From Neisseria macacae ATCC 33926 (GTDB taxonomy: Bacteria > Pseudomonadota > Gammaproteobacteria > Burkholderiales > Neisseriaceae): a stretch of DNA of 32,000 nucleotides. Below the pieces are notes generated by a model, which saw only the letters and a program-made list of their open reading frames with translations, was not told where the DNA came from and searched no databases. Both the position numbers and the translations under genes were made by a program. The stretch's first letter is position 1; each line of letters begins with the position of its first letter. This document shows positions 16,300 through 31,676 of this stretch, one piece after another. The DNA is taken from positions 844,188 through 876,187 of the forward strand of contig NZ_CP094241.1 of assembly GCF_022749495.1 (NCBI RefSeq). The letters run 5' to 3'.

Positions 16300-16329
16300 A
16301 GGCCGTCTGAAAGAATTTTCAGACGGCCT
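16300..16329. repeat. Inverted pair of AG-DUS (AGGCCGTCTGAA dialect); its right shoulder is the phage attachment site
   Basis: AGGCCGTCTGAAAGAATTTTCAGACGGCCT. It differs from the GTCGTCTGAA dialect used everywhere in 1-13,400. Confidence 0.8.
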
Positions 16330-16400
16330 TATATATTGCGCCCCATCACAGGGGCATTTTTAACAATCGTAAAGCCTCTTTAACAAAAGGGGCTTTTCTT

Positions 16401-16619
16401 ATGTGCATCGTCTTCTACACCGTCAATCCCGAACCGCCTAAATTTCCAAAATCTTTCATCGTTCGTATTTTCAAAGACGATTCTGACGTTACTCGTTGCC
16501 TTAAAACCGTTAATTTTCCTATCTCTTCACCTGACCGTATTTCAAAGATTAGAAATGCCGCCAATGAATACGGTCGTTTGTCTGTCCGCGAAATCATCAG
16601 CAAAGAGGTGTCCCAATGA
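16401..16619 (+). CDS. Phage small protein with ribbon-helix-helix-like C-terminal half (outer copy)
   Basis: 72 aa. KTVNFPISSPDRISKIRNAANEYGRLSVREIISKEV has a CopG/RHH-like beta-alpha-alpha pattern. Its stop overlaps the rep start (ATGA). Confidence 0.45.
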   Translation: MCIVFYTVNPEPPKFPKSFIVRIFKDDSDVTRCLKTVNFPISSPDRISKIRNAANEYGRLSVREIISKEVSQ

Positions 16620-16811
16620 AAAACATCAGCACCAAAAAAGCGCATGAAGCCGCGTTTAGCGGCGGCAGCGTAAGCGACGCGCCAAAGGCGGCTTCATGCG
16701 CCGATATGGCGCCCCCCTTATCTAACAGGGGGGGAGCAGAAACCGAGGCGGCTTTGAGTACCGAACAAGAAACTTTTGAAAAATACACTACCTTCTTGAC
16801 TGATTCAAAAG
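16616..16811 (+). pseudogene. 5' fragment (codons 1-65) of the outer-copy rep, cut off by the inner prophage
   Basis: It is identical to the N-terminus of the intact 441-aa Rep up to ...FLTDSK. The frame then runs into the inverted phage right end (DGISHCQI*). Confidence 0.9.
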
Positions 16812-16953
16812 ATGGTATATCGCATTGTCAAATATAAATTTCGATTTATTTTATATTTGATTGTTTTCATTTAATATTTATTTATTGCCTTTCCATCGAA
16901 TGCAACAAGCCACGGCTGCTTTTACGGCAGCCGTTTTCTTTTGTTTGTTTTCG

Positions 16954-17904
16954 TTAAGCTGTTTGATAGCGCATTTTTTCGAACGGCTTTTGTGTTTTAT
17001 GGATGTAGTAGGCGATTTTGGCAAGTTTACGCATCAAAGCAACTATGACAACCATTTTAGGCTTATGAGATAAGTTTTGAACTAACTTAGGAAAGGCTTT
17101 AATGCGATAGGCGACAAGCGCGGGCATAAACAAGGCGCGTTTAAGCCGGCGGTGACCATAGCGGCTTAATCTGCCTTTTTTATTGACGCTGGTTCCTGAT
17201 TGTTCAATTAGCGGACTTAATCCGGCGAATGATACGAATTGGTTAGCCGTCTTAAATTGTTTGTCTGTGAGATGACGGAGCAAGATTGCGGCGGTATCTT
17301 TGCCTATACCGGGAATTGTTTGCAGATTTTTGTAATGCGTATTCAGGCTATCTTGTTGCTGAATCATCAGGTCTATTCGCTTGGCCGTTTGGTCTATCTG
17401 TTTGGCCAAGAGCAATATGATTTCTTCGTGTGTGGCACGAATAAAGGTATCTTTTGCGGCGTGCAGTCTGTTTTGACTTTCGTTTTGCTGTTGTTTGAGT
17501 TGCTGGAGCAGGCTTATCAGTTTATACAGGGTTGGGTTTTCAGACGGCTTGAACGGTGTAAGTTTATCTAAATGGCGTTTTGTGTATTCTGCTATGAGCC
17601 TTGAATCGGCTCTATCGGTTTTTGTGTGGCTAAACTGGCTTTTTGAGTAGTCTTTAATTTTCAGAGGATTTATAACGAAGACTTGATAAATTGCACTGAA
17701 ATAGTCAGCAGCTTCTTCGTAATAAATGCCAGTTGCTTCCATGCTAATACTTATTTTGCGGATACGTTTTGATCGTATCCAGTCATTTAGTTTTTCGAAG
17801 CCTTCGCAAGCGTTAGCTATTTTAATATAGTCTGATTGGCCGCTAGTTCTAAGCAAAGTTACGTCTATGGTATCTTTGGAAATATCGAATCCTATTACAT
17901 TCAT
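16954..17904 (-). CDS. IS110-family (DEDD, Piv-like) recombinase, inner copy
   Basis: MNVIGFDISKDT...SMEATGIYYEE...VINPLKIKDY...KTDRADS forms the DEDD N-domain. LQTIPGIGKDTAAILL...FAGLSPLIEQSGTS...SRYGHRRLKRALF forms the C-domain. RBS AAGGAA precedes the ATG at 17904. The tracked start at 17982 is likely UTR. Confidence 0.9.
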   Translation of the reverse strand: MNVIGFDISKDTIDVTLLRTSGQSDYIKIANACEGFEKLNDWIRSKRIRKISISMEATGIYYEEAADYFSAIYQVFVINPLKIKDYSKSQFSHTKTDRADSRLIAEYTKRHLDKLTPFKPSENPTLYKLISLLQQLKQQQNESQNRLHAAKDTFIRATHEEIILLLAKQIDQTAKRIDLMIQQQDSLNTHYKNLQTIPGIGKDTAAILLRHLTDKQFKTANQFVSFAGLSPLIEQSGTSVNKKGRLSRYGHRRLKRALFMPALVAYRIKAFPKLVQNLSHKPKMVVIVALMRKLAKIAYYIHKTQKPFEKMRYQTA

Positions 17905-17967
17905 TGCATTTTCCTTATGATTCAGCCTGTTTGCACGGCTATGATGGTATTCAATCTTTAGGATAAG

Positions 17968-18032
17968 TGGGCGATTCGGCATTTCTTTTGTCCAGCTTTT
18001 TACTTTGGCCGTTTTACTGCCTAAACCGCCCA
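17968..18032 (-). ncRNA. Candidate bridge/seek-RNA target-binding stem-loop (inner copy; mirror of 30429-30493)
   Basis: See the entry at 30429-30548. Confidence 0.35.
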
Positions 18033-18054
18033 GGCTTTTGTTTTGCGCTAAACA

Positions 18055-18096
18055 AAAACCCGCAAACCGTCTTTTTTAAAACGGTTTGCGGGTTTT
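18055..18096. terminator. Bidirectional hairpin terminator (mirror of 30365-30406)
   Basis: 14-bp stem AACCCGCAAACCGT/ACGGTTTGCGGGTT with A and T runs on either side. Confidence 0.65.
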
Positions 18097-18216
18097 GGCT
18101 TTGGCATTTTATTGCGTCCGGTTGAGCTGATTTTTGTCTGTTTTTGAATTTTTAGGTGTCTCCGGAAGACATAAAATTGCTTAAACTCAAAAAAGCGGGA
18201 GTTCCCGCACCCCGTG

Positions 18217-18275
18217 GCTGCTTTTTACCGTGTTGATTACGCCTTTTGTGCTTCATCAACACGGTAAAAAGCAGC
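18217..18275. other. Perfect 21-bp-stem hairpin after zot (mirror of 30186-30244)
   Basis: GCTGCTTTTTACCGTGTTGAT / ATCAACACGGTAAAAAGCAGC with a 17-nt loop. Confidence 0.7.
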
Positions 18276-30181: not shown

Positions 30182-30185
30182 TTGA

Positions 30186-30244
30186 GCTGCTTTTTACCGT
30201 GTTGATGAAGCACAAAAGGCGTAATCAACACGGTAAAAAGCAGC
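30186..30244. other. Perfect 21-bp-stem hairpin after zot
   Basis: GCTGCTTTTTACCGTGTTGAT, a 17-nt loop, then ATCAACACGGTAAAAAGCAGC. A short GCGGGA/TCCCGC hairpin plus a T-run follows. Confidence 0.7.
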
Positions 30245-30364
30245 CACGGGGTGCGGGAACTCCCGCTTTTTTGAGTTTAAGCAATTTTATGTCTTCCGGA
30301 GACACCTAAAAATTCAAAAACAGACAAAAATCAGCTCAACCGGACGCAATAAAATGCCAAAGCC

Positions 30365-30406
30365 AAAACCCGCAAACCGTTTTAAAAAAGACGGTTTGCG
30401 GGTTTT
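30365..30406. terminator. Bidirectional hairpin terminator between zot and the recombinase
   Basis: AAAACCCGCAAACCGT, a 10-nt loop, then ACGGTTTGCGGGTTTT. Confidence 0.65.
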
Positions 30407-30428
30407 TGTTTAGCGCAAAACAAAAGCC

Positions 30429-30548
30429 TGGGCGGTTTAGGCAGTAAAACGGCCAAAGTAAAAAGCTGGACAAAAGAAATGCCGAATCGCCCACTTATCC
30501 TAAAGATTGAATACCATCATAGCCGTGCAAACAGGCTGAATCATAAGG
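30429..30548 (+). ncRNA. Candidate bridge/seek-RNA-like guide region in the recombinase 5' UTR
   Basis: A 14-bp stem (30429-30443 with 30480-30493) closes a 36-nt loop. The loop carries AAACGGCC (30447-30454, target left half plus core C) and ACAAAAG (30470-30476, reverse complement of core plus target right half). ATACCATC (30511-30518) equals the phage right end plus core C. Confidence 0.35.
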
Positions 30549-30556
30549 AAAATGCA

Positions 30557-31507
30557 ATGAATGTAATAGGATTCGATATTTCCAAAGATACCATAGACGT
30601 AACTTTGCTTAGAACTAGCGGCCAATCAGACTATATTAAAATAGCTAACGCTTGCGAAGGCTTCGAAAAACTAAATGACTGGATACGATCAAAACGTATC
30701 CGCAAAATAAGTATTAGCATGGAAGCAACTGGCATTTATTACGAAGAAGCTGCTGACTATTTCAGTGCAATTTATCAAGTCTTCGTTATAAATCCTCTGA
30801 AAATTAAAGACTACTCAAAAAGCCAGTTTAGCCACACAAAAACCGATAGAGCCGATTCAAGGCTCATAGCAGAATACACAAAACGCCATTTAGATAAACT
30901 TACACCGTTCAAGCCGTCTGAAAACCCAACCCTGTATAAACTGATAAGCCTGCTCCAGCAACTCAAACAACAGCAAAACGAAAGTCAAAACAGACTGCAC
31001 GCCGCAAAAGATACCTTTATTCGTGCCACACACGAAGAAATCATATTGCTCTTGGCCAAACAGATAGACCAAACGGCCAAGCGAATAGACCTGATGATTC
31101 AGCAACAAGATAGCCTGAATACGCATTACAAAAATCTGCAAACAATTCCCGGTATAGGCAAAGATACCGCCGCAATCTTGCTCCGTCATCTCACAGACAA
31201 ACAATTTAAGACGGCTAACCAATTCGTATCATTCGCCGGATTAAGTCCGCTAATTGAACAATCAGGAACCAGCGTCAATAAAAAAGGCAGATTAAGCCGC
31301 TATGGTCACCGCCGGCTTAAACGCGCCTTGTTTATGCCCGCGCTTGTCGCCTATCGCATTAAAGCCTTTCCTAAGTTAGTTCAAAACTTATCTCATAAGC
31401 CTAAAATGGTTGTCATAGTTGCTTTGATGCGTAAACTTGCCAAAATCGCCTACTACATCCATAAAACACAAAAGCCGTTCGAAAAAATGCGCTATCAAAC
31501 AGCTTAA
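30557..31507 (+). CDS. IS110-family (DEDD, Piv-like) recombinase, outer copy
   Basis: Mirror of 16954-17904. Confidence 0.9.
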   Translation: MNVIGFDISKDTIDVTLLRTSGQSDYIKIANACEGFEKLNDWIRSKRIRKISISMEATGIYYEEAADYFSAIYQVFVINPLKIKDYSKSQFSHTKTDRADSRLIAEYTKRHLDKLTPFKPSENPTLYKLISLLQQLKQQQNESQNRLHAAKDTFIRATHEEIILLLAKQIDQTAKRIDLMIQQQDSLNTHYKNLQTIPGIGKDTAAILLRHLTDKQFKTANQFVSFAGLSPLIEQSGTSVNKKGRLSRYGHRRLKRALFMPALVAYRIKAFPKLVQNLSHKPKMVVIVALMRKLAKIAYYIHKTQKPFEKMRYQTA

Positions 31508-31629
31508 CGAAAACAAACAAAAGAAAACGGCTGCCGTAAAAGCAGCCGTGGCTTGTTGCATTCGATGGAAAGGCAATAAATAAATATTAAATGAAAACAA
31601 TCAAATATAAAATAAATCGAAATTTATAT

Positions 31630-31635
31630 TTGACA
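31630..31635 (+). promoter_or_regulatory. Outward-facing -35 hexamer TTGACA at the phage right end (half of a junction promoter)
   Basis: TTGACA lies exactly 17 nt before the end of the CTT core. The left end continues ATATATT (16331-16337), giving a -10 only in the circular form. Confidence 0.4.
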
Positions 31636-31676
31636 ATGCGATATACCATCTTTTGTATTCCTTAATCTCACATCCC

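Follow-up and report, generated by a model that had tools for sequence, protein, structure and literature searches.

How does a filamentous prophage come to carry a second, complete copy of itself, in inverted orientation, within its own replication gene? The question is raised by a 32,000-nucleotide (nt) stretch of Neisseria macacae ATCC 33926 DNA (RefSeq assembly GCF_022749495.1, contig NZ_CP094241.1, positions 844,188 to 876,187 of the forward strand; hereafter the window, numbered from its first nucleotide). An earlier inspection of the letters alone (the sequence-only reading) had noticed in it two units of a filamentous phage resembling the Nf phages of Neisseria, one lying inverted in the rep gene of the other. 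The observation is real, and that reading of it is correct. We propose, with a probability of about 0.8, that the phage's own RNA-guided recombinase of the IS110 family inserted a circular twin into an attachment-site (att) look-alike in rep of an identical copy. What is added to the known Nf and IS110 systems is a phage-borne bridge RNA, the targeting of terminators built from DNA uptake sequences (DUS), and a self-target in rep.

Two identical prophage copies are nested in opposite orientations

Bases 16812–23988 of the window are the exact reverse complement of 24473–31649 (7,177 bp, 0 mismatches), and bases 16328–16811 are the exact reverse complement of 23989–24472 (484 bp, 0 mismatches). 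There are no Ns across the mirrored region. Base differences between the arms would have counted against nesting; none were seen across either mirrored pair. The perfect 7.2-kb inverted repeat with a 0.5-kb spacer described earlier is therefore borne out, as exact mirrors of 7,177 bp around a 484-bp spacer. With P for the 484-bp piece, Q for the 7,177-bp piece, and a prime for the reverse complement, the plus strand reads P Q P' Q'. Both phage units, U = P + Q', come to 7,661 bp, in agreement with the length originally given. On the minus strand, one uninterrupted U runs from 24472 down to 16812; on the plus strand, P (16328–16811) and Q' (24473–31649) are the halves of a second U, parted by the first.

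The inner prophage (16812–24472, minus strand, 7,661 bp) is complete and, as had been claimed, carries an intact 441-aa rep on the strand opposite to the outer copy (22859–24184, minus; Rep_trans in Pfam). The outer prophage is interrupted. Its segment P (16328–16811, plus) comprises the left end, two hairpins, an open reading frame (ORF) of 72 aa at 16401–16619, and rep codons 1–65 at 16616–16811; its segment Q' (24473–31649, plus) comprises the C-terminal part of rep to 25602, the structural genes, zot (29006–30181), a non-coding region, the recombinase gene, and the right end. The C-terminal piece of rep continues from codon 66, reading GRLIEVPL from 24472. Two of the original boundaries needed adjustment. 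The outer rep had been described as split after codon 65; the place is right, and the exact cut falls after 65 codons + 1 nt (16616–16811). The element had been given the span 16328–31652; its left edge stands, and its end is at 31649, positions 31650–31652 (CTT) being the duplicated core. Because this CTT core is duplicated, every junction is ambiguous by 3 bp. A nested inverted self-insertion, as the sequence-only reading had it, is consistent with every junction.

An independent assembly breaks at the predicted branch points

A palindromic fold-back artefact, which had been named as a possible source of the structure, is excluded. Such an artefact would show one symmetry centre at an arbitrary point; here there are two symmetry centres, both novel junctions lie on the recombination core, and an independent Illumina assembly of the same strain breaks at the branch points that the nested structure predicts. 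The latter evidence comes from the Logan contig ERR160760_291 (Illumina, 7,186 bp), which is identical to window 24470–31655 and consists of Q' plus 3 nt (AAG) and 6 nt (CTTTTG) of microhomology common to the alternative neighbours. The contig is exactly the unbranched segment of the nested model; a single prophage would not branch inside rep. Contigs from two drafts (GCA_000220865.1 and GCA_963394935.1) match the window with 100% identity across 12.6 and 14.3 kb and therefore represent the same strain, sequenced repeatedly; we take GCA_000220865.1 to be Neisseria macacae ATCC 33926. Short-read assemblies of this strain break here because of the perfect 7.2-kb inverted repeat.

It follows from the geometry that the isomers P Q P' Q', P Q P Q', and P Q' P' Q' contain the same junction types, once each, and telling P Q P' Q' from P Q P Q' takes reads longer than an arm. 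Flipping between the arms by RecA should interconvert the isomers, and from P Q' P' Q' a deletion between the direct Q' copies would restore a single prophage. The assembly might thus be mis-threaded: the junctions would be real, but located on episomal dimers of the replicative form or in a minority of cells, with the chromosome carrying a single prophage or another isomer (P Q P Q' or P Q' P' Q'). The identical junction sets of the three isomers are compatible with this, a perfect inverted repeat of 7.2 kb needs reads longer than ~8 kb, and the short-read drafts of the same strain end short of the region; moreover, ERR160760_291 speaks for the branch points and not for their stoichiometry or location. 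We nevertheless consider mis-threading unlikely, since the window assembly is contiguous, with host sequence on both sides, and since the 7,186-bp contig, recorded in 4 samples (one of them an NCBI assembly), ends after CTTTTG and not after CTT, to which abundant free circles with a CTTATA junction would have shortened it.

Phage ends and attachment sites

Both copies begin with CTTATATATTGCG and finish with GCGATATACCAT, followed by CTT; CT is thus duplicated at the ends: CTT stands at the left end and again beyond the right one. The same two ends are joined (..ATATACCAT-CTT-ATATATTGCG..) in the free circles OR148975.1 and IMGVR_UViG_3300011982_000476, and an independent N. flavescens prophage has the same ends at a different locus. 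Circular genomes in saliva viromes are 89–94% identical to the window phage over the aligned parts; a scan of GTDB yielded a single related locus. Circularisation would also create a promoter: the −35 box TTGACA at the right end (31631–31636, plus) comes to stand opposite TATATT of the left end, and the resulting TTGACA-18-TATATT matches sigma-70 at 11/12 positions. This promoter is present in the circular form only, the integrated end having none of the kind.

The chromosomal site of the window prophage is TTTCAGACGGC|CTTTTGTATT, and the interrupted site in rep, read on the antisense strand, is AATCAAACGGC|CTTTTGAATC. The two match at 16/21 positions and share 11 contiguous identical bases (ACGGC|CTTTTG); close to the insertion point, the rep site reads TCAaACGGC|CTTTTGaAT and the chromosomal site TCAgACGGC|CTTTTGtAT. 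These junctions bear directly on another way to obtain such a structure, namely an inverted duplication that arose through homologous recombination or through template switching during replication, with no part taken by the phage recombinase. Inverted duplications are known to arise by such routes, and zero divergence is compatible with them. Here, however, both novel junctions fall exactly on the phage recombination core (CTT) at the phage termini and also on the single best target look-alike in the phage genome, for which template switching gives no reason, and there is no microhomology beyond the att-like core. We regard this origin as extremely improbable. Explanations of the XerCD/dif type and by Rep nicking were set aside, both new junctions being at the recombinase core.

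The left half of the chromosomal attachment site (16301–16327, plus) is an inverted DUS pair, GGCCGTCTGAA-AGAATT-TTCAGACGGC, with the left target AGACGGC, and the phage is inserted immediately 3' of the second arm of this DUS hairpin. The right half (31650–31656, plus) consists of the core CT and the right target TTTGT. Of 10 distinct left junctions in sibling prophages, 9 have the flank TTTCAGACG[G/A]C up to the insertion point and one has AAGCTGACGGC; right junctions of the window-phage lineage read CT-TTTGT in 10/10 distinct cases. More than 20 further junctions, from contigs in IMG/VR, JGI, ENA, and Logan, have almost without exception a left flank formed by the 3' arm of two inverted DUS, either TTCAGACGGC or the dialect TTCAGACGAC. 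The junctions examined (20+) are located at TTCAGACG[G/A]C|CTTTT.., that is, at the end of a DUS hairpin and not at a dRS3 repeat. The window also contains an unoccupied attachment site, AGACGAC-CT-TTTGT (8701–8714, minus), between cysG and hflX. In metagenome contig L032 this site is taken by a sibling prophage, whose flanks rejoin to the window 8701–8714 sequence at 118/120 positions.

Two family members can also be adjacent. In L050 (ERZ28627986 scaffold_169, 1–15523), two different phages of the family form a direct tandem, in which CT connects the ..GTAGCAT right end of the leading phage with the TATATATTGCG left end of the one behind it; the junction resembles that of a hybrid circle.

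A candidate bridge RNA lies directly upstream of the recombinase gene

The recombinase encoded at the right end of the phage belongs to the IS110 family (DEDD_Tnp_IS110 and Transposase_20 in Pfam; 30557–31507, plus, in the outer copy and 16954–17904, minus, in the inner one). Its longest ORF begins at 30479; the most likely start is instead 30557 (MNVIGFDISK). Gene callers elsewhere give both 316 aa and 342 aa for this protein. Directly upstream, at 30425–30552 (plus; 17909–18036, minus, in the inner copy), there is a putative bridge RNA of ~130 nt with a target loop and a donor loop. Its target loop would contain the left guide AAACGGCCa (30447–30455) and the right guide ACAAAAG (30470–30476), the latter being the reverse complement of CTTTTGT; its donor loop would contain the left guide ATACCATCa (30511–30519) and the right guide ATAAG (30543–30547), all on the plus strand. 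The four guides follow each other in the order known for IS621 (PMC11208160).

The ~150 nt preceding the recombinase gene are nearly invariant in 8 relatives, and the sequence farther upstream diverges. Donor guides were compared among circular inoviruses with recombinases 33–97% identical to that of the window. In 8/8 phages, the phage's own left donor half followed by C (an 8-mer) recurs ahead of the recombinase ATG, in 7 of them between −41 and −51 and in L015 at −106. Six different left-donor sequences are represented (ATACCAT, ATATCAT, CTATCAT, GTAGTAT, ACACTAT, and ATACTAT), with 7–8 of 7–8 matched for each. A covariance model built from the window lineage found full-length matches directly upstream of the recombinase in divergent phages (E-values 3.6e-11 to 0.028); in the window it found two matches, one per copy. 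In the RNA alignment, which was fitted to the model and hence leans toward structure, 94% of cells were paired versus 62% in shuffles and 30–46% in slid-partner controls, and compensatory changes were present in 13/16 pairs. RNAalifold, applied to a plain MAFFT alignment of the divergent sequences, recovered almost no structure; hand annotation and the covariance model were needed. Saliva and lemur inoviruses with recombinases of only 33–52% identity also retain a bridge-RNA-like non-coding RNA.

Two other locations for a guide RNA had been considered, the 288 nt that separate rep from the left end (z = −1.7) and a 21-bp hairpin with ACAAAAGGC in its loop. Both were dropped once covariation was seen directly upstream of the recombinase.

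The guides can be compared with the sites at which the phages are found. In lineage A the right target guide is ACAAAAG, and all 10 distinct right junctions are CT-TTTGT. In lineage B the guide is AGAAAAG, and all 5 right junctions are CT-TTTCT; the donor guide of these phages is GTAGCATCa, and their ends are ..GTAGCAT. A third phage, with the guide TAAAAAG, is sited at CT-TTTTA. The bridge RNA is probably expressed and probably guides the recombinase.

As a separate observation, the phages of L049 and L051, compared with those of L032–L035, are mosaic: they combine a rep and 72-aa ORF of the window type with a recombinase and bridge RNA of the other lineage (320 aa, target CT-TTTCT). Phages appear to exchange the integration module among themselves.

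A self-target in rep

The target implied by the guides is the 14-mer AAACGGC-CT-TTTGT. The inner rep retains an intact pseudo-attachment site, AAACGGC-CT-TTTGA (23982–23995, plus), antisense to rep codons 63–68 (TCA AAA GGC CGT TTG A, encoding ..SKGRL..); it is the site that was used in the outer copy. It is 1 mismatch away from the guide-implied 14-mer and is the only site within 2 mismatches in the circular phage; only 0.1% of shuffled genomes (n = 2,000) contained a site within 1 mismatch. The host region, reconstructed in its empty state, has a single 1-mismatch site, the occupied one. The rep site is thus as good a match as the natural sites. Unoccupied sites within 2 mismatches of the implied target are present elsewhere in the window, at 8701–8714 (minus), 10224 (minus), and 14899 (plus).

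The rep site stems from the DUS-like codons for the conserved SKGRL (AAA GGC CGT TTG). No such self-site is present in the genomes of divergent phages with other guides, and we therefore read the rep site as an accident of this lineage and not as design. Selection might instead keep the site so that a resident copy is disrupted or regulated, for copy control or superinfection exclusion. The site, with synonymous variants, is indeed found in all close relatives, and its best-matching TTG variant in at least 8 prophages. Such programmed self-targeting is very unlikely, however: the divergent phages do without a self-match, the conserved SKGRLIE together with a DUS-like codon choice accounts for the site, and nesting was seen in only 1 of ~40 loci. 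A more elaborate version, which we think quite unlikely, holds that the look-alike is a maintained self-target by which the phage limits or switches its own replication, the resident rep being knocked out, for example, as circles accumulate, and that the inverted double prophage would be an invertible, reversible storage form.

Proposed course of events

According to the mechanism that we favour, insertion of a circular twin by the phage recombinase, the donor would be an Nf-type filamentous phage of Neisseria in the form of a double-stranded circle, which integrates by means of its own IS110-family recombinase. One loop of the bridge RNA would pair with the joined phage ends (donor ..ATACCAT-CT-TATAT..) and the other with the target A[G/A]ACG[G/A]C-CT-TTTGT, normally the 3' arm of a DUS hairpin followed by CTTTTGT. 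In the present case, insertion would have taken place at the rep look-alike rather than at a chromosomal site. The incoming copy would be inverted because the rep site is antisense, and the copies would be identical because both stem from the same clone. As to the order of events, either a replicative-form circle derived from the resident prophage would have recombined at the rep site, so that a second copy entered a resident prophage, or two circles would first have fused into a dimer that went on to integrate. If the inner copy were excised, rep would be whole again. The 0 differences in 7,661 bp point to a recent event, or to arms homogenised by gene conversion.

Several observations weigh against this reconstruction. 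The left target guide AAACGGC is mismatched by 1–2 at natural sites (AGACGGC, AGACGAC); given this tolerance of the left guide, the number of mismatches is only a rough measure of site quality. The bridge RNA is not in Rfam, searches of which gave no window match at gathering thresholds and only noise (E up to 5) around the circle junction. The same rep site, in its TTG variant, occurs in seven other prophages, none of which is nested; an earlier idea of ours, that a synonymous TTG codon unique to the window phage had given rise to the self-target, was wrong for this reason. No second nested case was found in ~40 related loci (by self-comparison of the loci and from gene maps of 20 more contigs). 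A scan of IMG/VR for the junction pattern returned 0 matches, and pattern searches with the right end and the left end likewise yielded no nested case. These searches are biased against nested cases because short-read assemblies break at such structures; nesting is rare or under-detected.

Gene content of the phage and host surroundings

The gene content assigned from the sequence alone was mostly confirmed by Pfam (Rep_trans, Inovirus Coat_B, TspB, DUF2523, Zot, and IS110), the exception being an ORF labelled ribbon-helix-helix-like ('RHH-like'), a label that found no Pfam support. The order Rep_trans, Inovirus coat B, TspB, DUF2523, Zot is that of an Nf-type inovirus, and an identical gene order is annotated in 11 circular saliva inoviruses. 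In the inner copy, all on the minus strand, rep is accompanied by the 72-aa ORF (24181–24399), an RstB-like gene (22509–22829), coat B (22013–22336; Inovirus Coat_B), the Neisseria TspB gene (19754–21367), a DUF2523 gene in the position of pVI (19459–19752), and zot (18280–19455). The absence of a secretin gene, noted earlier, holds: there was none among the main ORFs of the unit scanned against Pfam, and the leftover space is too small for one. The suggested resemblance to the Nf/MDA phages likewise extends to gene content, end structure, and recombinase type.

The 72-aa ORF upstream of rep (16401–16619, plus, and 24181–24399, minus) has no Pfam match and is conserved in relatives. Its N terminus (..FYTVNPEP..) is kept across divergent phages, and an identical protein is present in 83 blocks of a public collection. 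Neither the chimeric 73-aa ORF nor the 441-aa Rep had a match in look-ups of the exact protein. Within the recombinase gene there is a full DNA uptake sequence (GCCGTCTGAAAA, 30913–30924); together with the DUS-like site in rep (GCCGTTTGA), it may make for efficient uptake of the phage by transformation. The non-coding region of the outer copy contains a perfect hairpin of 21 bp, the loop of which includes ACAAAAGGC, and a second hairpin of 17 bp (30186–30244 and 30364–30405). The pairing of the 17-bp hairpin is kept in relatives through compensatory changes, and the region folds with z = −8.1; it may comprise a packaging signal, a minus-strand origin, or terminators.

The host side of the window contains sulfate-assimilation genes, hflX, a P-type ATPase gene, an IS5 element, and DNA uptake sequences of the Neisseria type. 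The IS5-family element (~15150–16280; transposase 15229–16236, minus) is located just left of the attachment site, and a contig in a draft assembly of this strain stops at the edge of the element (window 15166). An island of low GC content at 13764–14943 (GC 0.27 at 14001–15000) holds a 132-aa ORF followed by a Barstar-family gene (14250–14555) and may encode a barnase-like toxin with its immunity protein.

Implications

A natural near-cognate hit of a bridge-RNA recombinase in its own genome would give a concrete picture of off-target insertion outside the laboratory. On this evidence, integration sites in the family of Neisseria filamentous phages, which includes the disease-associated MDA phage, would be chosen by a small programmable RNA. 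For the commensal lineages studied here, the site that it specifies would be the end of DUS terminators, with single-base changes in the guide defining lineages that have different sites. The perfect 7.2-kb inverted repeat with its 0.5-kb spacer is a potential hotspot for inversion and deletion.

Comparison with known systems

The window phage shares with the Nf prophages (Nf1/MDA phi, Nf2-4, and Ngo phi 6-9) rep, the single-stranded DNA-binding protein, coat B, TspB, a pVI-like protein, Zot, and a right-end transposase of the IS110/Piv type, as well as the lack of a secretin, the CT duplication at the ends, and a promoter formed on circularisation. In the passages of PMC7058167 and PMC9778887 that cite Kawai 2005, Nf phages are said to integrate 'by their own transposase'. 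The Nf1 target is stated to be the dRS3 repeat (PMC7058167), whereas the window phage is found at the end of a DUS hairpin followed by CTTTTGT. Truncated, deleted, and partly inverted Nf variants are known (PMC7058167, PMC9778887); unlike these, a nested copy is not described in the Nf-phage literature that we found, and it is the presence of a whole second copy, nested and inverted in rep, that distinguishes the window phage from the Nf prophages.

In nested insertion sequences and in CTX phi/RS1 arrays, as here, an element is present twice at one locus through its own integration machinery. The CTX phi arrays are direct tandems made by the host XerCD at dif, whereas the window phage is inverted, lies inside its own gene, and would have been placed there by a phage-encoded RNA-guided enzyme. 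A direct tandem of two different phages also occurs in the window-phage family (L050).

No literature linking bridge RNAs to filamentous phages or to Neisseria was found, and the closest counterpart of the integration module is IS621 (Durrant et al. 2024, PMC11208160). Both systems have a recombinase with DEDD and Tnp_20 domains and an RNA directly 5' of its gene, with target and donor loops; in both, the left guides have the sense of the top strand and the right guides are its reverse complement, and the core is CT. A circular intermediate with a junction promoter, predicted for the window phage, and 0–2 mismatches at natural targets are likewise common to the two. They differ in the mobile unit, an insertion sequence of ~1.5 kb in one case and a presumably replicating and packaged phage of 7.7 kb in the other, and in the right target guide, which in the window phage is 5+2 nt. 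Finally, unlike in IS110 elements with bridge RNAs, the RNA of the window phage is separated from the left end by ~6.6 kb and from the right end by 1.1 kb, and the junction promoter therefore faces the replication module and not the RNA.

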